This document shows, piece by piece, positions 12,160 to 46,269 of a stretch of DNA of 64,000 nucleotides; the first letter of the stretch is position 1, and every line of letters starts with the position of its first letter. The notes under the pieces are model-generated. The model did not search any database, had not been told where the DNA came from, and was given only the letters and a program-made list of their open reading frames with translations. Both the position numbers and the translations under genes were made by a program. Source of the DNA: Candidatus Woesearchaeota archaeon. Its GTDB lineage: Archaea; Nanobdellota; Nanobdellia; Woesearchaeales; ARS49. The DNA lies in contig WJJS01000001.1 in NCBI GenBank assembly GCA_014729505.1, positions 12,938 to 76,937 of the forward strand. Reading direction: 5' to 3'.

Positions 12160-13257
12160 CTACGACACTTCGTGAGTTTTGTACACCACATTAAGCGCAT
12201 CAAGATTGCGCAGCACATACATGCCATCATTTTCTACAGTGCCAAGATCACTCCATGTCGCCTGAATACCCTGATAGTACTGAGCCTCTTTATTGAACAA
12301 CACTGTTGGCGTAACGTTAATAGCATATCTTGACATCAAACGCTGACCATCAGGACTGGACACATCATAGGACACCTGACTCAAGAACACCATACCAAAA
12401 TTATCCTCAAAAATGGAAGTTACTGCGGAAGTATCAGAACAGGTCTCACACGTTTCATCAGTAAGAATAATCATAGTCGCTAATCCTCTCACGGTCTTTT
12501 CTTCACGATCAACATAGGGAGCAGGAGTATCACGAAGCACGTATTTACCATCTGACTCCACAGAACCAATACTCTGCCAGCCAGCACGAATAAACTCATA
12601 CTCAGAAGCATCATTTGAAAGAATAAGAGAAGGCGTTCTTGTAATATTATAATGATCAAGAAGACGCTGACCGTCAGCACTGGATGATTCAATCGTTTCA
12701 ATAGCTGAAAAGACCATCCCATTCAGTTCCAACTGCGAAAGCAAACGCTGAGTATCAAAACATTCAGGACAATTCTCATCCTCAAGAACAAGAGCAGTCA
12801 CCAAACCAAATACTTCGCCATCAAGATTAGAATACGGAACAAGAGAGTCAGACAAGACATAACCACTATCACTTTTTACAAACAAAGGAATCTGATCAAG
12901 ACGAGGATCAGCACCCTCAATAACAATAGCCGGCAATTTTTCAATAGAGAACTCCTCAATCAAAGATACTGCCTGGGCTTGCGTCTTATACTCCACTTCT
13001 TCAAAGACAAGACCTGCAAGTTCCAAAGCCTGAACAATCTCAGACGCGTTTACACACTGATCACAAAACGGTTGAATAACAGTTGCACGCAGTGAGGATG
13101 ATTCACTAGGCACAATGTCAATAACCGGTTCCTCGCCAGCGCGAGAAACGTAAAAAGACAAGATCACATTAGCCAACGTTGCAATAACAATCAAAACAAC
13201 GAGCAATACATGCAGCGTCGTCCACGGTGATTGCATCTTTTTTGCTGACATAGACAA
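12160..13257 (-). CDS. Membrane-anchored protein with three tandem thioredoxin/glutaredoxin-like domains, each with a CxxC motif (CDQC, CPEC, CETC)
   Basis: N-terminal TM helix then three ~100-aa repeats beginning hhhhxxxxCxxC and ending NhTxTPohhh (Trx-fold pattern). Confidence 0.5.
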   Translation of the reverse strand: MSMSAKKMQSPWTTLHVLLVVLIVIATLANVILSFYVSRAGEEPVIDIVPSESSSLRATVIQPFCDQCVNASEIVQALELAGLVFEEVEYKTQAQAVSLIEEFSIEKLPAIVIEGADPRLDQIPLFVKSDSGYVLSDSLVPYSNLDGEVFGLVTALVLEDENCPECFDTQRLLSQLELNGMVFSAIETIESSSADGQRLLDHYNITRTPSLILSNDASEYEFIRAGWQSIGSVESDGKYVLRDTPAPYVDREEKTVRGLATMIILTDETCETCSDTSAVTSIFEDNFGMVFLSQVSYDVSSPDGQRLMSRYAINVTPTVLFNKEAQYYQGIQATWSDLGTVENDGMYVLRNLDALNVVYKTHEVS

Positions 13258-17605: not shown

Positions 17606-17640
17606 GGGCCGGTAGCTCAACCTGGTAGAGTGCTCCGTTG
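17606..17640 (+). repeat. Duplicated 5' fragment (35 nt) of tRNA-Ala(GGC)
   Basis: Identical to 17730-17764; preceded by ttttttaaag TATA-like box at about -30. Confidence 0.8.
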
Positions 17641-17696
17641 CGATGCTTTCGCCCATCGACAGCGAGGTCCGATCTCACTTGCGTGAGATCCGACAG
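17641..17696 (+). other. Conserved structured element, copy 1 (CGATG..CATCG hairpin + GGTCCGATCTCAC-TTGC-GTGAGATCCGAC hairpin)
   Basis: Shares motif with 20047-20108 and 22430-22462, with compensatory base changes in the hairpin stem. Confidence 0.5.
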
Positions 17697-17729
17697 TTTT
17701 ATGAATAGGTGTTTTTAGTATACGTTTAT

Positions 17730-17803
17730 GGGCCGGTAGCTCAACCTGGTAGAGTGCTCCGTTGGCTTCGGAGAGGCTGCGGGTTCAAATCCCGCTCGGT
17801 CCA
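17730..17803 (+). tRNA. tRNA-Ala (GGC)
   Basis: Manual cloverleaf: acceptor GGGCCGG/TCGGTCC with G3:U70, anticodon loop TTGGCTT, T-arm GCGGGTTCAAATCCCGC, discriminator A. Confidence 0.85.
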
Positions 17804-17858
17804 TGGGTGGCCTTGACGCCCTTTTTTTGATCAAACTTTTTGTAAAAGTTTGCGGTTA

Positions 17859-17879
17859 GAGGCTGCGGGTTCAAATCCC
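17859..17879 (+). repeat. Duplicated 3' fragment of tRNA-Ala (variable/T-arm)
   Basis: gaggctgcgggttcaaatccc identical to tRNA-Ala 17773-17793. Confidence 0.7.
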
Positions 17880-20031: not shown

Positions 20032-20046
20032 TGGTGGCGGAGTGGC
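20032..20046 (+). repeat. Duplicated 5' fragment of the tRNA-Met locus (4 nt flank + tRNA nt 1-11)
   Basis: tggtggcggagtggc identical to 20132-20146. Confidence 0.8.
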
Positions 20047-20108
20047 ATATTCCGATGTTTTCCGCCATCGACACGGAGGTCCGATCTCGCTTGCGCGAGA
20101 TCCGACGG
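20047..20108 (+). other. Conserved structured element, copy 2
   Basis: atattCCGATGTTTTCCGCCATCGACACGGAGGTCCGATCTCGCTTGCGCGAGATCCGACGG; matches 17641-17696 with covarying stem positions. Confidence 0.5.
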
Positions 20109-20135: not shown

Positions 20136-20253
20136 GGCGGAGTGGCTTAGCCTGGTTAGAGCACCGCGCTCATAGGTCATACCTTTGAGCACTGAGCTTT
20201 CGAGCTATGACGAAGAAACGCGGGGGTCACGAGTTCAAATCTCGTCTCCGCCA
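20136..20253 (+). tRNA. tRNA-Met (CAT) with ~43-nt intron at the canonical 37/38 position
   Basis: Acceptor GGCGGAG/CTCCGCC, anticodon stem CCGCG..CGCGG, loop CTCATAG, T-arm ACGAGTTCAAATCTCGT, discriminator A; intron gtcatacctttgagcactgagctttcgagctatgacgaagaaa. Confidence 0.75.
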
Positions 20254-21232: not shown

Positions 21233-21293
21233 GTCTCGTCTTTTTCTTTTTCTTTTCATAACATTTTTAAGGAGTATATTTGACTTGCAGATC

Positions 21294-22355
21294 ATGGTTT
21301 ATTCGCTAGTCAGACCGCTGCTTTTTCGCATGGACGCAGAAAAAGTACATCATCGCCTCGTCAGGTTAGGAACGATGCTCCAACAAGTTCCCCTCGTCTT
21401 GCCGGTGCTTCGCAGTATCTTCACGTATCAGCATCCCGCACTACACGTACAAGTGGACGGCGTAGCGTATGAAAACCCGATAGGGTTAGCAGCAGGTTTT
21501 GACAAAAACGGCGAAATACCTCGATTTATGAGCAGTTTTGGTTTTGGACACGTAGAAATAGGCTCTGTGACAAGTAAACAACACACAGGCAATCCAAAAC
21601 CGCGAGTGCATCGCGTAATAGAAGAACAAGCATTAGTTATCAATTATGGACTAGCAAATCACGGTGCTGCAACAGTAAAACGACGAATAGCAGCGTATGA
21701 TGAAAAGATGCCTATTGGAATTAGCATCGCAAAGACACCCCGCGTAGGAGGAGAACAAGGGATACGCGATTACGCACAATCATTTAGAGATCTATCCATG
21801 CATGGAACGTATACGACGATAAACATCAGTTGTCCAAATGTGGCAGACGGAGAAACGTATGGAGAGAATCCCCGATTATTGCGATCTTTATTGCAAACAC
21901 TCTCAAAAGAAAAAATCGTCTCACCCGTATATCTCAAACTCAAACCAGATTATTCGCACAAACAAATCGATGACATACTCGAGGTTATCAATTCGTTTCC
22001 GTTTGTAAAAGGAGTAATCATCGGCAATCTCACAAAAGAACGAAAAGGGGCAGTCGCGAAAAGAACAGAGTCGGGCGGTATCAGCGGAAAACCAACTAGA
22101 AACAAAAGCACAGCATTAATACGATACGTCTACAAGAAAACAAATGGTCAACTCACCATTATTGGGTGCGGCGGTATCTTTACTGCCCAAGACGCGTATG
22201 ACAAAATAACATCCGGAGCAAGCATGTTACAACTCATAACGGGCATGATCTATTTAGGACCTAGCACCATAAGAAACATCAATAAAGGGCTTGTTACACT
22301 GCTCGAACAAGACGGATTTAAAAGCATCACCGAAGCAACAGGTTCGCGAGCGTGA
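21294..22355 (+). CDS. pyrD: Dihydroorotate dehydrogenase, class 2 (quinone-dependent, N-terminal membrane-association extension)
   Basis: ENPIGLAAGFDKNGE, GFGHVEIGSVT, IIGCGGI motifs; ATG at 21294 preferred over TTG at 21285. Confidence 0.8.
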   Translation: MVYSLVRPLLFRMDAEKVHHRLVRLGTMLQQVPLVLPVLRSIFTYQHPALHVQVDGVAYENPIGLAAGFDKNGEIPRFMSSFGFGHVEIGSVTSKQHTGNPKPRVHRVIEEQALVINYGLANHGAATVKRRIAAYDEKMPIGISIAKTPRVGGEQGIRDYAQSFRDLSMHGTYTTINISCPNVADGETYGENPRLLRSLLQTLSKEKIVSPVYLKLKPDYSHKQIDDILEVINSFPFVKGVIIGNLTKERKGAVAKRTESGGISGKPTRNKSTALIRYVYKKTNGQLTIIGCGGIFTAQDAYDKITSGASMLQLITGMIYLGPSTIRNINKGLVTLLEQDGFKSITEATGSRA

Positions 22356-22413
22356 AAGAAAACCACGTTCAAATCCGTAAACTTCTTAACTGGGGCATTT
22401 TATGTGCATATAT

Positions 22414-22462
22414 GCCGACGTCGCATACTCTGCGTATCGATGTTTTCCGCCATCGACACGGA
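22414..22462 (+). other. Duplicated 5' 14 nt of tRNA-Ser followed by conserved element core (CGATGTTTTCCGCCATCGACACGGA), copy 3
   Basis: gccgacgtcgcata then ctctgcgtatCGATGTTTTCCGCCATCGACACGGA; identical core to 20054-20078. Confidence 0.5.
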
Positions 22463-22539
22463 CGCGCGGCATTCGCTATTGCTCAGCCCCGCAAGACACA
22501 AATCTTAAAAGGCAGTTCCTTTGTTACTCACTTATTCTT

Positions 22540-22718
22540 GCCGACGTCGCATAATCTGGTACGCTAAAAAACGCATTAGCGTTTTTGGCGCGCCGAAAAG
22601 CTTTGCTTTTCTCGCGTTGCGCCGGTCTTGAAAACCGGTTCCCTTGGGTGCTCGAAAATCTGCGATTTTCGGCACGTACAAAAGCTGACGCTTTTGTCCG
22701 TATCCCGTTTCAAATCCG
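22540..22718 (+). pseudogene. Pseudo-tRNA-Ser: nt 1-22, ~56-nt insertion, anticodon arm + variable arm start, ~51-nt insertion, degenerate T-arm lacking 3' acceptor
   Basis: Segments 22540-22561, 22618-22649, 22701-22718 match the intact tRNA-Ser at 22756; no complementary 3' acceptor strand. Confidence 0.45.
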
Positions 22719-22755
22719 TAAACTTCTTAACTAGTGGCATTTCATGCGCATATAT

Positions 22756-22837
22756 GCCGACGTCGCATAATCTGGTATTGCGCCGGTCTTGAAAACCGGT
22801 TCCCTTGGGTATCCCGGTTCAAATCCGGGCGTCGGCG
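22756..22837 (+). tRNA. tRNA-Ser (TGA), type II with long variable arm
   Basis: Acceptor GCCGACG/CGTCGGC, 3-bp D stem, anticodon stem CCGGT/ACCGG loop CTTGAAA, variable arm TTCCCTTGGGTAT, T-arm CCCGGTTCAAATCCGGG, discriminator G. Confidence 0.85.
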
Positions 22838-22891
22838 TTTCTATGACGCGAAAGCGTCATCCCATTTTTGAAGTAGTGATTTGAACCGGGG
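22833..22891 (+). repeat. 59-nt direct repeat copy 1 (last 5 nt of tRNA-Ser + 54 nt trailer); second copy at 23751-23809
   Basis: Exact match cggcgtttctatgacgcgaaagcgtcatcccatttttgaagtagtgatttgaaccgggg. Confidence 0.8.
22841..22868 (+). terminator. Perfect hairpin ATGACGC-gaaa-GCGTCAT followed by cccattttt T-run, 3' of tRNA-Ser
   Basis: Seen directly. Confidence 0.4.
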
Positions 22892-23068
22892 CCAGTCAAG
22901 CTTTGCTTGACGTTGTCCTGGTTTCAAATCCGGGCGTCGGCGTTGTGGGCGCGTTAGCGCTCTTTTTTGTTGTTGTGATTTGAACCGGGGCCAGTCAAGC
23001 TTTGCTTGACGTTGTCCTGGTTTCAAATCCGGGTGTCGGCGTTGTGGGCGCGTTAGCGCTCTTTTTTT
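22876..23068 (+). repeat. Tandem direct repeat, 2 x ~99 nt, each containing inverted repeat GATTTGAACCGG...CCTGGTTTCAAATC and a tRNA-Ser 3'-end-like segment (cctggtttcaaatccgggcgtcggcg)
   Basis: Units 22876-22974 and 22975-23068 nearly identical (one g/t difference). Confidence 0.8.
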
Positions 23069-23135
23069 GATTGCTGCATCATTTCGAATCTAAACCATAA
23101 CCTTTATAAACTATGGCCACTATAGTAACTATAGT

Positions 23136-23336
23136 ATGCCAACAACTATCCAACTCAGCAAAGAAACCAAGAAGCTAATAAGCACGTTTGGTTCCAAAGA
23201 AGATACTTACGACACGATAATTAGAAGACTGTACAAATTAGCTGTTAAGGAGCAACTGAAAGAATTCTTGCTCTCATCAGAAGGAACAATGCCGATAGAT
23301 GAGGCGATTAAGAAAGCCAAGAAAAAATGGCAATAG
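23136..23336 (+). CDS. Putative ribbon-helix-helix (CopG-like) antitoxin
   Basis: N-terminal TIQLSKETKKLI beta-strand-then-helix pattern of RHH proteins; 66 aa; overlaps downstream gene by 10 nt. Confidence 0.35.
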   Translation: MPTTIQLSKETKKLISTFGSKEDTYDTIIRRLYKLAVKEQLKEFLLSSEGTMPIDEAIKKAKKKWQ

Positions 23337-23668
23337 TAGAGATTACGAAAACACTCTATGAACAGATAGATCGAAAATTCAAAGGAAAAAGTGTCAAAGT
23401 ATTACAACATTTGAAATCATTAGAAGAATCGCCAAAGAAAGGAAAACTCCTAGGAACCATAGGAGGAATAGTGATTAAAGAAGTAAAGTATGAAGGTTTC
23501 AGATTTTATTTCATCACCGACGGATTCAAACTCAAATATACCTCCTCTGAAGATCTTACCGACTTACTTTTGCGGGTTGTAAGAATGTCAGATAAGAAAC
23601 ATCAGCAACAGACTATCGACGAGATCAAACAGATTCTACTAACCATCGGTGTTGAAGGTTTGACTTGA
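23327..23668 (+). CDS. Putative RelE/ParE-family toxin
   Basis: KKGKLLGTIGG-IVIKEVKYEGFRFYFITDG and LLLRVVRMSDKK resemble the RelE/ParE G..L.G.L.G....R.G.YRiiY..d...i.il.i.hR pattern; 113 aa. Confidence 0.35.
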   Translation: MAIVEITKTLYEQIDRKFKGKSVKVLQHLKSLEESPKKGKLLGTIGGIVIKEVKYEGFRFYFITDGFKLKYTSSEDLTDLLLRVVRMSDKKHQQQTIDEIKQILLTIGVEGLT

Positions 23669-23750
23669 TAGCCTTCCTTGGCTTGATGTAATGCAAACCG
23701 CATGCACAGGTAAAAAATAACTCAAAAGAAGCCCAGAACCAACCATACAC

Positions 23751-23809
23751 CGGCGTTTCTATGACGCGAAAGCGTCATCCCATTTTTGAAGTAGTGATTT
23801 GAACCGGGG
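23751..23809 (+). repeat. 59-nt direct repeat copy 2
   Basis: Exact match to 22833-22891. Confidence 0.8.
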
Positions 23810-23854
23810 ATCTTTGCTTGGCAGTATGCTGATGAAAATACGGCGTTTCAAGAA

Positions 23855-24286
23855 TTATATCAAACCAGTAATTGCTGCAGAGACAAAGAAAATGATGAGG
23901 AAAAAACCAAGCATAATCACATTTGCAGCGATCATGAACCCGAGCCAGACAAGACCGACAAGAGCGCCCTTACCGTAATCAACATGCAACATCCACGAAG
24001 GCAAAAGCAAATACAACGCGAGCTGTACGATCATACCAATAGCACTGATAATGATACTTGCAAACGAGCCCACATTCATAGCAAGCAATCCTATAAGAGC
24101 ACTGAACACGCCAAGAATCAGCGCAGGCCACAACGATTGCACATACGTTCGCGGCACATGAAAAATCTTCGCACTCAACCACAACAGCAAGGCACTAAGA
24201 GGAGTAAAGATAACAAAAACAACAAGAGAGACAATAAGTGTTCCAAGAAAACTCAGGTATGGCAGCTGAGGCTCAACGATCGTCAT
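23855..24286 (-). CDS. Membrane protein (4 TM), hypothetical
   Basis: Hydrophobic helices. Confidence 0.45.
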   Translation of the reverse strand: MTIVEPQLPYLSFLGTLIVSLVVFVIFTPLSALLLWLSAKIFHVPRTYVQSLWPALILGVFSALIGLLAMNVGSFASIIISAIGMIVQLALYLLLPSWMLHVDYGKGALVGLVWLGFMIAANVIMLGFFLIIFFVSAAITGLI

Positions 24287-33863: not shown

Positions 33864-35107
33864 ATGCAATGCAAAGACAATAATAAAGTTTATAGCAAAC
33901 GTCATGTTCTTACCAGTATGCGCGTTTTTGAAAGAGGGGAACTGAGACTCTTATGGCCGTTTTATGCCGATTATCTACTATCACAACTACTCTTTTTTGC
34001 ACCAGCGTTTTACATCGTGTATTTTCTGGATATTGGCCTGTCCTTGTTTCAGTTAGGACTTGTTATGGCTGCAGCACCACTGGCAGGTCTGCTCTTTGAG
34101 ATTCCAACAGGAGCCGTAGCAGATCTGTACGGGAGAAAATTTTCAGTCCTGCTAAGCTTTCTACTGGTAGCAGCAGGTTATTTGCTTCTCTTCTTCTTTA
34201 CAAGTATCCCAGCACTTATTGCCATTTTTGCGTTAATCGGATTTGCAGGAACATTCTGGTCGGGAGCAAAAGATGCGTGGGTTGTTGATCTTATAGGAAA
34301 AAGAAAAACATTACTCCAAATTATTTTGCAAAAGCAGATTTTCTCAGCAGTCTTGGACTAGTCATATCAGGCATCCTTGGAGCGTTCATTGTTGAAGTCA
34401 TTGGCCTACGATCCATATGGTTATTTGCTGCAGGTGCGTACGCGATATCATTTGTAGTTCTACTCACAGCCCCTGAACGTTATCGCAGACGACACACTTC
34501 ATTTAGTCGAGCTCTTAAAACTGTAACACAACAAAGCGGGGATGCGTTACGATACTGTCGAATGCACCACATACTTTACGCATTTTTCATTGCAAGCGCT
34601 CTTTGGCTTATCGCAGGAGCAATAGGAGGAGTCATGGCATGGACACCCTTTCTTATCGAACTTGGTTTTGCAGAACAACACTTTGGCTACTTGTGGAGTG
34701 CGATGGCCGTAGTACAAATGATGGGACTTGCCATCTCACAATTCGCTCTAAAAACGATCTCGTCTCGAAAAGTGATCATTGTTGCCCAGTCATTGTTTGC
34801 TGCAACTCTCCTTGCCGTGTATTGGGTATCTTCACTGCCGTTTGCGTTGTTACTGGTACTGTTTAGCATCTTATTTGCCTCAGCAAAAGCACCTTCATTA
34901 AACGTGTTCTTTCATCGGTTTACTCCTTCATACATGAGAGCAACCATCGGTTCAGTCAAGGCAACACTCGGCGCAGCTATAGCCATACTCATGATGCCGA
35001 TTTCAGGACATTTTATTGACACTATAGGTGCTCAAAACGCATTATTTAGCGCGGGACTTGCATTACTGCCTGCAGTAGGGATATACCTGCTAATGAAAGA
35101 ACACTAA
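33864..35107 (+). pseudogene. MFS-family transporter interrupted by a frameshift in an A-run near 34300 (track ORFs 33864-34361 and 34562-35107)
   Basis: Shifting frame at gaaaaagaaaaacatt gives continuous ...LIGKRK/NITPNYFAKADFLSSLGLVISGILGAFIVEVIGLRSIWLFAAGAYAISF...RYCRMHHILYAFF joining the second ORF; 12-TM topology overall. Confidence 0.5.
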
Positions 35108-40009: not shown

Positions 40010-40324
40010 ATGGGACATACCGTATGGAGCCAACGGATGAATGCAGAGCGCATCATCACAGAACTACTTCGTTACAAGAAAGCATTGCGAAGCGAACAAC
40101 AAGCACTGTTTGACGAATTACTGAAACGATCCATGAATCATCTCGGTACCATAAGTTACGCAAACAGCATGCACACCTGGGCATTACTGCTCTTATCAAT
40201 ACTACTAGAACAAGAACAACGCATAAAGAAACTAGAACATGTGGTTAATAGATACCTATCAAAAAAAGAACAAGATCGTCGTGTGGCTGAAAACGAAAAC
40301 GACGAATATGCATCGAACCTATGA
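40010..40324 (+). CDS. Hypothetical helical protein
   Basis: ORF in operon; 4-nt spacing from previous gene, overlaps next. Confidence 0.35.
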   Translation: MGHTVWSQRMNAERIITELLRYKKALRSEQQALFDELLKRSMNHLGTISYANSMHTWALLLLSILLEQEQRIKKLEHVVNRYLSKKEQDRRVAENENDEYASNL

Positions 40325-42794
40325 GTACTCTGTCACACTCTACGCACACGAAGATGCACGAGAATTCCTTACAACGAACAAGATTGCTTTTACAGAACAA
40401 CTCAAAAAAGATCCTTTTCGCAACAAGAAACATGTTCTTGCCATAACGTTATCATGCGAACGACTCGCACCATTTGTAAGATGGTTTGAACTCGGCACCA
40501 AACACCGCATACCGCTTTACAATGCAGATATCACGCCGGAACAACGCTTTCTTTACGAGAACAAGCTAGTACCGTGCAGCAACGTGCGAGACGTTGATGG
40601 GAGACTTGTACACGTCAACGAATCCGCACCACCGCTAAGCACTGTTCATTTGCGATGCGCCACACAAGGACCTATTACACGATTAGAATACCAGGATCAC
40701 ACTATCGTAGGCGAGGAACGAGAAGTACTCGCGCATTTTACGCAACGCTTCAGACAGGACGATCCAGATGTACTACTTATGCGACGAGCATACAAAGCAG
40801 TACCACATCTCTTTGAACGGTTACGTGCGAACGGATTGCACGTGCCTTTTCATCGATGGGATGAGATACCGCTGCGCCACCGCGGCGGCAAGACACACTT
40901 CAGTTACGGAAGAGTATATTATCAAGATCACTCGTTTCAACTGCGAGGACGATTACTCGTTGACACGGCAAGCAGTGTAGGATCAACATGCTCTGTACCT
41001 GCAATCATCGAACTTGCACAGCTCACAGGCACTCGATTCCAACGCGTAGCAGCACGCAGTTTCGGTGCCTCATTTCAACTTCAACTCGTCAAAGAACTGC
41101 TCGCCCAAGATCTGCTTGTGCCATACAAGGAAAAACCCTTTGATGAACCGCTGCGCATGACAGAGTTATTCGACGCAGACAGAGCAGGACATACCTTTGA
41201 TCCTCAACTAGGATTTCACAATGATGTTGTAGCAATAGACTTCTCAAGCATGTATCCATGGATCATCCACAACTACAACATCAGCGCAGATACCATACTC
41301 ACAAAAAAAGGAAAGAAGACCAAGATTCCTGCAGTACCAATTGATGTAACCACACAATATCAAGGAGTGATACCAAAAGCAATCAAACCATTGTTAGATC
41401 GACGCATGTACTACAAAAAACATCCGACGCCGGAAAACAAACGACGAGCAATAGGACTAAAAACACTGCTCGTGACCTGTTATGGTTATCTGCGATTTCG
41501 CGAATTTAAAATGGGACTTGCCACATCACACATGGCAATTTGTTCATACGCGCGAGAACTCCTCCTACAATCAGCAACGCTTGCAGAAGAACAAGGCTTT
41601 CGCGTCATTCACGGCATCATCGATTCACTCTACATATCAAAAAAAGACATTACCACAACAGAAGTCGAAACATTTCGAAAAGAACTAGAACACATGAGCG
41701 GTATACCCGTTGCCTGCGATGGCATCTTCAAATGGATCGTGTTTCTTTCACGACGACATGACAACACTGTCGGAGTGCCGGCCCGTTATTTTGGCGCATA
41801 TAAAAATGGTGGCATTAAAGCAAGAGGTATTGAAGTACGACAATCGAGTGCGCCGCTACTTATACGACGATTCCAACAAAACGTGTTAGAAGAGCTCGCA
41901 GCGTTTTCAACGAAAAGAGCGATACAGGATCACTTGCCACAAGTCATGAAACGCGCACGAGCAGTCCTGCACGATCTGCCTGCGACGCCACGAGAAGAAC
42001 TGTGTTGCAGAATACGCATCAGTAAGACCACGTATTCTCGAAACATTCCACAACGGCAAGTGATACGCTTGTTAACACAACAAGGGAGAGACATTATCGC
42101 TGGACAGGTCATACGGTTCTGGTACAGTGCGAATGGACCGTTACTAGTCGATATGACTGGAAGGCCAGACTACAAAAAATATCGCGATTTGTTATTACGC
42201 GCAATACACTCAGTGTACCAGCCTTTCGGTTATACTACCAAACAACTACAACACCTCCTATTAGACGAATATCAAAGCGTTCTGCAAGATTTTGCGCGAC
42301 AACAGATCCGCTACGAATACGTGCCTATGAAAAAACACTATGCACAAAAACGAGGACTGTCAGAGAGAATCCTGCGACAACGACTGGAACGACAAGGATG
42401 GACGGTGTGGCGCGGCGGCAGCATACATATTACTCGTTATGAAGAACTGTATCCCAACGTACGACGAAAGTACGAATTACTCATCCGTCTGCTTGACGAT
42501 CATAAGCCAGACACAAAAGAAATACTGCAATATTATTGCATGATACAGCACGGCATGCCAGATTTTCTCTGCTACAAAAATGGACGATTCAAATTTGTTG
42601 AATGCAAATTGCAATACGAGCAATTAAGTCATCGACAAAAACGCTGCATTATGAAGCTACAAGACCTGGGATTTGATGTGGAAGTTCACAAACTCGTTGA
42701 CAAACGCACAAAAATGAGAGAGGCACTAGTTGACATGTTTACCAATTGCAAAATAGTACGAGAACGACAACTAGCCCTACTCTCAACATGGTGA
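40239..42794 (+). CDS. Family-B DNA polymerase-like protein lacking recognisable 3'-5' exonuclease motifs, motif C variant IIDS, fused to C-terminal VRR-NUC nuclease domain (start uncertain, 40239 or 40306)
   Basis: Motif A AIDFSSMYPWII, motif B KTLLVTCYGYLRF, motif C region RVIHGIIDSLYI (DTD replaced by IID), KxY KKYRDL; C-terminus GMPDFLCYKNGRFKFVECK...LSHRQKRCIMKLQDLGFDVEV = VRR-NUC (PD-(D/E)xK) pattern; no DxE/YxxxD exo motifs found. Confidence 0.7.
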   Translation: MWLIDTYQKKNKIVVWLKTKTTNMHRTYEYSVTLYAHEDAREFLTTNKIAFTEQLKKDPFRNKKHVLAITLSCERLAPFVRWFELGTKHRIPLYNADITPEQRFLYENKLVPCSNVRDVDGRLVHVNESAPPLSTVHLRCATQGPITRLEYQDHTIVGEEREVLAHFTQRFRQDDPDVLLMRRAYKAVPHLFERLRANGLHVPFHRWDEIPLRHRGGKTHFSYGRVYYQDHSFQLRGRLLVDTASSVGSTCSVPAIIELAQLTGTRFQRVAARSFGASFQLQLVKELLAQDLLVPYKEKPFDEPLRMTELFDADRAGHTFDPQLGFHNDVVAIDFSSMYPWIIHNYNISADTILTKKGKKTKIPAVPIDVTTQYQGVIPKAIKPLLDRRMYYKKHPTPENKRRAIGLKTLLVTCYGYLRFREFKMGLATSHMAICSYARELLLQSATLAEEQGFRVIHGIIDSLYISKKDITTTEVETFRKELEHMSGIPVACDGIFKWIVFLSRRHDNTVGVPARYFGAYKNGGIKARGIEVRQSSAPLLIRRFQQNVLEELAAFSTKRAIQDHLPQVMKRARAVLHDLPATPREELCCRIRISKTTYSRNIPQRQVIRLLTQQGRDIIAGQVIRFWYSANGPLLVDMTGRPDYKKYRDLLLRAIHSVYQPFGYTTKQLQHLLLDEYQSVLQDFARQQIRYEYVPMKKHYAQKRGLSERILRQRLERQGWTVWRGGSIHITRYEELYPNVRRKYELLIRLLDDHKPDTKEILQYYCMIQHGMPDFLCYKNGRFKFVECKLQYEQLSHRQKRCIMKLQDLGFDVEVHKLVDKRTKMREALVDMFTNCKIVRERQLALLSTW

Positions 42795-46024: not shown

Positions 46025-46040
46025 TCCCCGCCCCCGGACT
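46025..46040. repeat. Duplicated 16-nt fragment of the tRNA-Tyr 3' end/T-arm
   Basis: tccccgcccccggact identical to 46146-46161; adjacent palindromes ctgcagaaaacacttcgtgtttttgcag and gaaccaggaacctggttc. Confidence 0.7.
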
Positions 46041-46145
46041 CAGCGTTAACCTGCGGTTAACTGGCTGCAGAAAACACTTCGTGTTTTTGCAGTGAACCAG
46101 GAACCTGGTTCAAGCCTTGTAAGATATTGTTTCCAAAAAGAAAAG

Positions 46146-46269
46146 TCCCCGCCCCCGGACTTGAACCAGGAACCTCGCGGTGACGGCTGACTCGCCTTCA
46201 CGTCTCGAGCGTTGCTCGGAATCAGTTGAGTTTCTACAGCCGCGCGCTCTACCATTGAGCTAGGCGGGG
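46146..46269 (-). tRNA. tRNA-Tyr (GTA) with ~52-nt intron at canonical position
   Basis: Reverse complement: CCCCGCC TA GCTCAATGGTAGAGC G CGCGG CTGTAGA [intron] CCGCG AGGTT CCTGGTTCAAGTCCGGG GGCGGGG A; C1:G72 as expected for archaeal Tyr. Confidence 0.8.

Follow-up and report, generated by a model that had tools for sequence, protein, structure and literature searches.

A mosaic tRNA-Ser(UGA) locus in a woesearchaeal genome that may represent an inherited, disrupted gene with a complete copy nested within it

Partial tRNA copies at tRNA genes, non-canonical bulge-helix-bulge (BHB) introns, split tRNAs, and RelE/ParE modules are already known. Regarding partial copies, pTN3-like integrases use the 5' half of a tRNA gene as their attachment site (attB), archaeal att sites can reach outside the tRNA, and relatives of pT26-2 target tRNA-Ser(TGA) (PMC8371274); a model that ties integration to the scattering of tRNA fragments and to intron gain was proposed in a report covering the Caldiarchaeum tRNA-Thr (PMC3293823). 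Split and tri-split tRNAs are found in Nanoarchaeum equitans and Caldivirga maquilingensis, "recently split" tRNAs in Thermoproteales, and disrupted tRNA genes in DPANN archaea (PMC5829648). The present study concerns a tRNA-Ser locus in a 64,000-nt stretch of contig WJJS01000001.1 (assembly GCA_014729505.1; hereafter the window) from Candidatus Woesearchaeota archaeon. The window is archaeal and woesearchaeal in content, with genes for EF-1alpha, EF-2, S10, and L7Ae nearby, and the locus is bounded by pyrD (21285-22355; PF01180, E = 3.8e-68) on one side and by a membrane-protein gene on the minus strand (23855-24286) on the other. An initial annotation made from the sequence had read this region as an integration hotspot with decayed remnants of mobile elements.

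We regard the region, with roughly even confidence, as an inherited and decaying disrupted tRNA-Ser(UGA) locus, in which a complete gene (B) sits inside an older, intron-bearing gene (A) that is broken after its variable arm. A fresh scar of virus or plasmid integration looks less fitting than this inherited locus because relatives have the same nested layout without mobile-element genes. The mosaic of partial tRNA-Ser copies on which the hotspot reading was built is real, and each of its repeats and inverted repeats is present where it had been placed; the parts of that reading that found no support are the element remnant and an att role for a pair of 59-nt repeats.

The sole intact copy at the locus is B (22756-22837, plus strand), an intron-less tRNA-Ser(UGA) recognized by ARAGORN and Rfam (tRNA, 58.5 bits) in agreement with the initial annotation; the Rfam search of the region matched only tRNAs. 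The tRNA 5' start is present in three copies, at 22414, 22540, and 22756. The second of these opens the disrupted copy, also noticed previously and designated here as A5' (22540-22718, plus strand), an older tRNA-Ser copy without a 3' end that consists of an exon (22540-22561), insertion 1 of 55 nt (22562-22616), a second exon (22617-22649), insertion 2 of approximately 52 nt (22650-22701), and a mutated T-arm half (22702-22718) in which G53 is replaced by T. Its exons of 22 and 33 nt are identical to B at 55 of 55 positions, and its fold has a z-score of -5.2. A5' stops inside the T-loop, after which spacer "U" (22719-22755, plus strand) leads directly into B, such that neither a complete cloverleaf nor a 3' acceptor strand is present. 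Further upstream, an earlier copy of the same unit (22368-22413, plus strand) contains the T-loop-like TTCAAATCCG and the 36-nt version of U, and is followed by a tRNA-Ser 5' fragment (22414-22436, plus strand; positions 1 to approximately 21, 83% identical in a self-copy scan) that ends at the D-loop 21/22 intron site. The duplicated block of approximately 65 nt, TTCAAATCCGTAAACTTCTTAACT...GCATATAT plus the tRNA 5' start, is thus composed of the T-loop-like piece, a spacer of 36-37 nt, and the 5' start; its copies (22368-22432 and 22709-22774) are approximately 92% identical, and an 18-mer seed from it gave 2 matches against 0.08 expected. The order of T-loop, spacer, and 5' start was considered as a permuted tRNA and rejected because the T-loop piece has no 3' acceptor strand after it.

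The best relative of pyrD in a scan of genome contigs was just 43% identical, so there was no syntenic relative for comparison. A metagenome scan with the 5' 22-mer found 18 loci, two of which, L101 and L103, were collinear with the window on alignment. In both, a TATA-like promoter is followed by A5', a trailer of 20-23 nt, the complete tRNA-Ser B, a leader that complements the trailer, a hairpin, and finally A3'. Their A5' begins with GCCGACG, carries an insertion at D-loop position 21/22, and ends after the variable arm, and their A3' consists of ATCCCGGTTCAAA, a T-loop insertion, and TCCGGGCGTCGGCG, with the boundaries of A5' and A3' abutting exactly at position 47/48. The order of A5', B, complementary leader, and A3' is suggested to be inherited because it is also present in these related Woesearchaeota. 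The acceptor strands of A5' and A3' match each other (GCCGACG/CGTCGGC), and the acceptor stem of B differs from that of A with compensation (GCCAGCG/CGCTGGC in L103, GCCAGTG/CACTGGC in L101); in the window, B is intron-less and carries the acceptor stem of A. The spacer of 20-23 nt leaves no room for a promoter of B's own in L101 and L103. A TATA-like box in the window, TCTTAAAAGG (22503-22512, plus strand), lies approximately 30 nt upstream of A5' and aligns with AAA.TTTAAAAG in both relatives, which is consistent with promoter function. We found no mobile-element genes at L101 or L103, and the neighbors of L103 are housekeeping genes only (pyrF, TFB, and a P-type ATPase). The initial annotation had itself named the same arrangement in related genomes without element-associated genes as a finding that would speak against its view, and L101 and L103 show that arrangement.

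The two insertions in A5' were examined for a central helix of 4 bp bounded on each side by a 3-nt bulge, the cut falling after the second bulge nucleotide, a test validated on canonical anticodon-loop introns (central helix 4/4, outer helix 5/5). Insertion 1 reached 3/4 for the central helix in the window; its homologue in the A5' of L101, with which it aligns collinearly, scored 4/4, and gene B of L103, which is complete, has a perfect BHB at its 21/22 insertion. Since it may be aligned with the L101 intron and in view of the BHB status of the insertions in relatives, insertion 1 is most simply read as an old D-loop intron common to the relatives, and not as the mobile-element insertion that had been proposed. 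Insertion 2 is made of two A/T-stem hairpins and was rejected as a BHB intron with a score of 2/4; it is predicted to be something other than an intron. The check for BHB motifs suggested in the initial annotation thus gave a weakened motif for the first insertion and failed for the second. Relative to the non-canonical BHB introns of multi-intron tRNAs and of the DPANN survey (PMC5829648), insertion 1 is similar in its position at 21/22 and its orthology to the canonical BHBs of L101 and L103, whereas its host copy lacks a 3' end, its BHB is weakened, and the second insertion has none.

Downstream of B, a terminator-like hairpin with a T5 run (22843-22870) is followed by an inverted T-arm copy, GTGATTTGAACCGGGG (22876-22891); this stretch (22838-22891, plus strand) together with 22833-22837 constitutes copy 1 of the 59-nt repeat. 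Two units of approximately 99 nt follow (22892-23068, plus strand), each with a hairpin (Y), a tRNA-Ser T-arm with an 8-nt T-loop and a 3' acceptor end (22916-22942 and 23015-23041), and a terminator-like hairpin with a T-run, and a further inverted T-arm copy (22975-22990) precedes the second unit. The tandem repeat, with its tRNA 3'-end-like sequences and inverted repeat, was confirmed as 2.1 copies at 96% identity (22865-23067), and each 99-nt copy includes TTCAAATCCGGG(C/T)GTCGGCG and an inverted GATTTGAACCGGG that is complementary to the T-arm at 13 of 13 positions. A fourth unit (23751-23855, plus strand) opens with copy 2 of the 59-nt repeat (23751-23809) and continues through a decayed hairpin Y into a T-arm remnant reaching the stop codon of the membrane-protein gene. 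Alignment of the sequences after each 3'-end copy resolves a unit of approximately 100 nt, composed of CGGCG, a hairpin with a T-run, GTGATTTGAACCGGGG, hairpin Y, and the T-arm with the acceptor 3' strand, that starts four times, at 22833, 22938, 23037 (truncated by a gene pair), and 23751 (Y and T-arm decayed). The hairpin and T-run sites after the 3'-end copies, including one at 23761, were called terminator-like in 4/4 cases, a role read from the sequence. The 59-nt repeats are exact, separated by 859 bp, and lie at the positions first reported for them; they make up the opening 59 nt of unit 1 and of unit 4, and overlap the tRNA by only 5 nt. They are thus two members of this four-copy family and appear not to be att sites of a 0.86-kb element; almost all of their length is outside the tRNA. 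Hairpin Y has CAAGCTTTGCTTG in common with the first hairpin of the L103 T-loop intron. The inverted T-arm copy also complements the end of A5' (22704-22726 against 22870-22890) over 13 nt with 1 mismatch and a further 5 nt (ACTTC/GAAGT), a pairing that corresponds to the trailer/leader pairs of L101 and L103.

These complementary ends resemble the split tRNAs described above, in which a 5' piece with a trailer meets a 3' piece with a complementary leader, and the matching acceptor halves, extra BHB introns, and DPANN host add to the likeness. One explanation considered is a functional fragmented tRNA: A5' and the 3' units would be expressed, the trailer and leader would pair, either RNase P with tRNase Z or the splicing endonuclease would set B free, and joining of the A exons would follow; alternatively, the mini-tRNA-like units would be processing, decoy, or regulatory RNAs. 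The trailer/leader pairing is stronger than chance would give (AAAATCCGCC/GGCGGATTTT in L101, 0/500 shuffles as good; 1/500 in L103) and is kept at each locus despite differing sequence. When the A exons are joined in silico, ARAGORN recognizes a tRNA-Ser in each of the window, L101, and L103. The T-loop introns of A3' (49 nt in L101, 81 nt in L103) are unrelated in sequence yet both canonical BHBs (TTCA/TGAA, 3-nt bulges), and the acceptor halves of A, which match each other and not B, the missing promoter of B in these relatives, the tandem mini-tRNA-like units with paired acceptor strands at two further loci (L091 and L095), and the disrupted tRNA genes and broad-specificity endonucleases of DPANN archaea (PMC5829648) all favor such a use. 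On the other side, BHB-mediated joining of A5' to A3' was rejected, no solution above background having been found at any plausible junction in the window, L101, or L103. No A copy is free of structural defects, with a mismatch at 31-39 in L101, one at 52-62 in L103, and G53 to T in A5' with the 8-nt T-loop of the A3' units in the window. Unlike in known split tRNAs, the pieces lie next to each other on either side of an intact tRNA with the same anticodon. T-runs stand between B and the 3' pieces, which have no obvious TATA box before them, and insertion 2 is not a BHB intron. Taken together, we consider a functional fragmented tRNA to be decidedly unlikely.

Units 3 and 4 are separated by two small genes, and the initial annotation was correct in describing them as overlapping. 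ORF66 (23136-23336, plus strand; 66 aa) is a putative ribbon-helix-helix (RHH)-type antitoxin-like protein with a weak match to DUF7557, and ORF113 (23327-23668, plus strand; 113 aa) is a RelE/ParE-fold protein with an extra C-terminal helical extension; the antitoxin-like gene comes first and the overlap is 10 nt. They are 100% identical to GF342_00200 and GF342_00205, respectively, of "Candidatus Woesearchaeota archaeon". A TATA-like box and repeated ACTATAG palindromes with a 9-nt tandem repeat (23103-23135, plus strand) precede the pair and may act as its operator, and the palindromes and box are also kept upstream of the pair in two other loci (L081 and L082). The pair had no direct Pfam match and the protein models were of moderate confidence; among 23 distant members retrieved by a profile search, five matched Pfam ParE_toxin (best E = 4.5e-9). 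The fold of ORF113 is predicted to be of the RelE/ParE type. Because of these ParE_toxin matches and the promoter palindromes, the previously proposed RHH/RelE reading is supported at the level of the modeled folds, more firmly for the RelE/ParE half than for the RHH half; roles in growth arrest and its neutralization are predictions. In the ORF113 family, the C-terminal extension (approximately 40 aa) is conserved, with an invariant S-D-K..QQ motif.

The pair resembles type II toxin-antitoxin (TA) modules of the RelBE/ParDE kind in its gene order, 10-nt overlap, RHH-like and RelE/ParE-like folds, and promoter palindromes, and differs from them in the C-terminal helical extension of the toxin and in being unusually conserved and found once per locus among housekeeping genes. 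The family comprises more than 1500 clusters with identities of 65-78%, every one of them woesearchaeal or nanoarchaeal, and collapses to 133 clusters at 50% identity; with its homologues counted in hundreds to thousands of such clusters, identity is 65-85%. In the four to five genomic contexts examined, the pair stands once per locus among varied housekeeping genes; elsewhere in Woesearchaeota no flanking repeats were found around it, and the pair and the ORF113 family had no match in IMG/VR. To judge from these sequences, the pair is a lineage-wide chromosomal module that does not behave like mobile cargo, and the interpretation of the segment of approximately 0.86 kb as an element remnant was not sustained, its cargo being found in unrelated housekeeping contexts and absent from IMG/VR. 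Being unusually conserved for a TA module, the RelE-fold pair may be a domesticated, ribosome-associated factor.

Partial self-copies are not confined to tRNA-Ser, and each of the window's four tRNA genes (Ala, CAU, Ser, and Tyr) has them. The gene for tRNA-Ala(GGC) (17730-17803) has an exact 35-nt copy of its own 5' end (17606-17640) with a TATA-like box upstream of the copy, and a 22-nt copy (17858-17879), located 54 nt downstream of the gene, that holds the T-arm region and a decayed acceptor end. An intron-containing tRNA with the anticodon CAU (20136-20253, plus strand; Rfam 55 bits), missed by the default mode of ARAGORN, has a 5' fragment approximately 100 nt upstream (20033-20049) with its first 14-17 nt or so and 3 leader nt. 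The gene for tRNA-Tyr(GUA) (46146-46269, minus strand), which has a canonical 52-nt intron, is accompanied by a second copy of its 3' third (46025-46114, minus strand), directly preceded by an inverted T-arm complement; the T-loop of this copy is interrupted by a two-hairpin insertion of 52 nt, which was rejected as a BHB intron (2/4). Across the DPANN loci examined, a self-copy of 11 nt or longer lay within 500 nt of 12/33 tRNAs, a count that includes some T-loop cross-matches between neighboring tRNAs and for which the small bacterial control offered no useful comparison. Arrays of 5' fragments with a period of 62-70 nt were observed in L091, L095, and L100. In L091, three units of approximately 90 nt (GGGAAC.., a hairpin, ..CTGCGTTCCCA, and a T-run) follow tRNA-Phe (12740-13090, minus strand), and in L095, minihelix-like units of the form GCCGACG-hairpin-CGTCGGC flank tRNA-Ser on both sides.

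A conserved element of approximately 60 nt lies directly 3' of the 5' fragments of three different tRNAs, at 17641-17700 (Ala), 20050-20108 (CAU), and, by alignment, as its first half only (TCGATGTTTTCCGCCATCGACACGGACG) at 22437-22465 (Ser, plus strand). Its consensus is CGATGYTTTC..CCATCGACA..GAGG plus a hairpin, GTCCGATCTCRC-TTGC-GYGAGATCCGAC, and includes GTCCGATCTC; CCATCGACA gave 3 matches against 0.49 expected. The 5' fragment of tRNA(CAU) can pair with TTCCGCCATC of the element in a 16-bp hairpin. Where the Ala and CAU copies differ, the changes are compatible with a hairpin (one pair being compensatory) or with an open reading frame (ORF) of 18-22 codons, the possible product of which is M(F/L)S(A/P)ID(T/S)EVRS(R/H)LREIR(R/Q). 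The element had no match in Pfam, IMG/VR, or the other loci examined, and its explanation as the remnant of an integrase ORF reading through an att site was rejected, given that the frame meets a TAG within the tRNA-Ala fragment and that the peptides had no Pfam match. We consider it unlikely that the tRNA genes of a woesearchaeal lineage are functional nested or fragmented units, comprising a tRNA-Ser within a second tRNA-Ser whose two parts retain matching acceptor strands, canonical BHB introns, and a covarying trailer/leader helix, mini-tRNA-like arrays, and the 60-nt element fused to copies of the tRNAs' own 5' ends.

The self-copies at all four tRNA loci and the 60-nt element at three of them hint at a possible old origin driven by mobile elements, through integration into tRNA 5' halves or 3' ends. 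In its explicit form, this explanation holds that elements integrated at tRNA-Ser and have since been deleted to 90-900 bp, with the 59-nt repeats as the att core of the last event, which brought the TA pair. The 60-nt element is then the expected conserved end of an element family with diversified tRNA targets, and precedents exist both for a tRNA 5'-half attB, att sites beyond the tRNA, and targeting of tRNA-Ser(TGA) (PMC8371274) and for fragment scattering with intron gain after integration (PMC3293823). The extents of the 5' fragments (1-21; 1-35 at Ala) and of the 3'-end copies are att-like, but the 59-nt repeat, one of a family of four units, has only 5 nt in common with the tRNA. In L091, an ORF for an rve-type (DDE) transposase (2032-2925) lies approximately 200 nt downstream of tRNA-Ser, showing that insertion sequences do adjoin such loci in some relatives. 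In the window, the initial annotation had noted the absence of an integrase, and searches of approximately 45 ORFs over 1-53.5 kb found no integrase or transposase (Phage_integrase, rve, and transposase families); the sole integrase-like match, Integrase_2 in an 80-aa ORF, was at chance level (E = 0.036). None was found around L103 either. In IMG/VR, the tRNA 3' end matched just unrelated tRNA arrays, and neither the 5' 22-mer nor the inverted T-arm and hairpin motif had a match. Three independent elements would each need to have been deleted to the same remnant, the supposed cargo is the lineage-wide pair in non-mobile contexts, and the abutting of A5' and A3' at 47/48 in relatives fits one insertion or disruption better than two att duplications. 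The locus shares with archaeal integration-derived tRNA fragments (PMC3293823; PMC8371274) the partial 5' and 3' copies beside an intact gene, intron-containing and intron-free versions at one locus, and fragment ends in tRNA loops. It differs from them in that no recombinase or element body lies between the copies, which are 20-900 bp apart, the nested order is common to diverged relatives, and the pair is the sole cargo. We therefore regard integration scars as a somewhat unlikely origin.

Several observations weigh against an inherited, decaying locus. The nested layout is known from three loci only, two of which were ascertained through the A5' 22-mer, which introduces ascertainment bias. 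In L101 and L103, A3' retains perfect acceptor strands together with T-loop introns that form canonical BHBs, a degree of conservation not expected of simple relics. The joining of one 60-nt element to the 5' fragments of three tRNAs is hard to achieve by local unequal recombination, and looks like site-specific delivery of a replacement 5' part. The exact identity of the 59-nt copies around the gene-bearing segment is also expected from the recombination of circular DNA.

In the inherited-locus reading, the functional gene today would be B, with transcription that probably begins from spacer U or the promoter ahead of A5' and ends at the hairpin and T5 run at 22843-22870. A second working part would be the autoregulated two-gene module of RHH and RelE/ParE folds (23136-23668) under its own TATA box and palindromic operator, and the 5' fragment at 22414, A5', and the four units of approximately 100 nt with their intron-derived hairpin would be relics. 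B would have become an intron-less copy in this genome, its exons identical to those of A, and the A pieces would have begun to decay, as suggested by G53 to T, the weakened BHB, and the 8-nt T-loop. Through unequal or illegitimate recombination between repeated tRNA pieces, the A pieces may then have been amplified and shuffled, leaving the TA-like module enclosed by two units and the 59-nt copies without differences.

An error of metagenome assembly, with near-identical tRNA-flanking sequences of different strains mis-joined or collapsed, was also considered because the source is a metagenome-assembled contig and exact 59-nt repeats can loop an assembly graph. There are 4 differences between the 99-nt copies, decay among the fragments is graded (83%, 92%, 96%, and 100%), partial copies of a similar style are present at other tRNA loci of the window, and the same architecture is found in contigs assembled independently from other samples (L100, L101, and L103), all of which make an artefact very improbable.

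Besides the tRNA loci, two features of the window were recorded. In an 851-aa ORF (40239-42794), a family-B DNA polymerase domain is fused, unusually, to a VRR-NUC nuclease domain at the C-terminus. Of two adjacent ORFs (33864-34361 and 34562-35107), one matches the N-terminal and the other the C-terminal part of an MFS transporter, for which a split gene, a frameshift, or a pseudogene is possible.

In the literature searched, we found no description of a complete tRNA nested in another of the same anticodon and common to relatives without element genes, and none of the 60-nt element. How archaeal tRNA genes turn intron-rich, split, or permuted is an old question, for which few natural intermediates are known. 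The locus and its relatives show together an intron-bearing interrupted copy, a nested complete copy, an intron-less replacement, and amplified 3'-end units. The tRNA sets of DPANN archaea are often reported to be incomplete, and loci such as this one will mislead tRNA counts as well as predictors of genomic islands that use duplicated tRNA ends. As relics, the pieces would record a way in which a tRNA gene is disrupted and repaired with no visible mobile element; were they in use, the gene architecture would be new. A functional nested arrangement, if true, would amount to a novel kind of split gene ("tRNA-within-tRNA") or to a novel class of tRNA-locus elements with a processing, decoy, or regulatory role.

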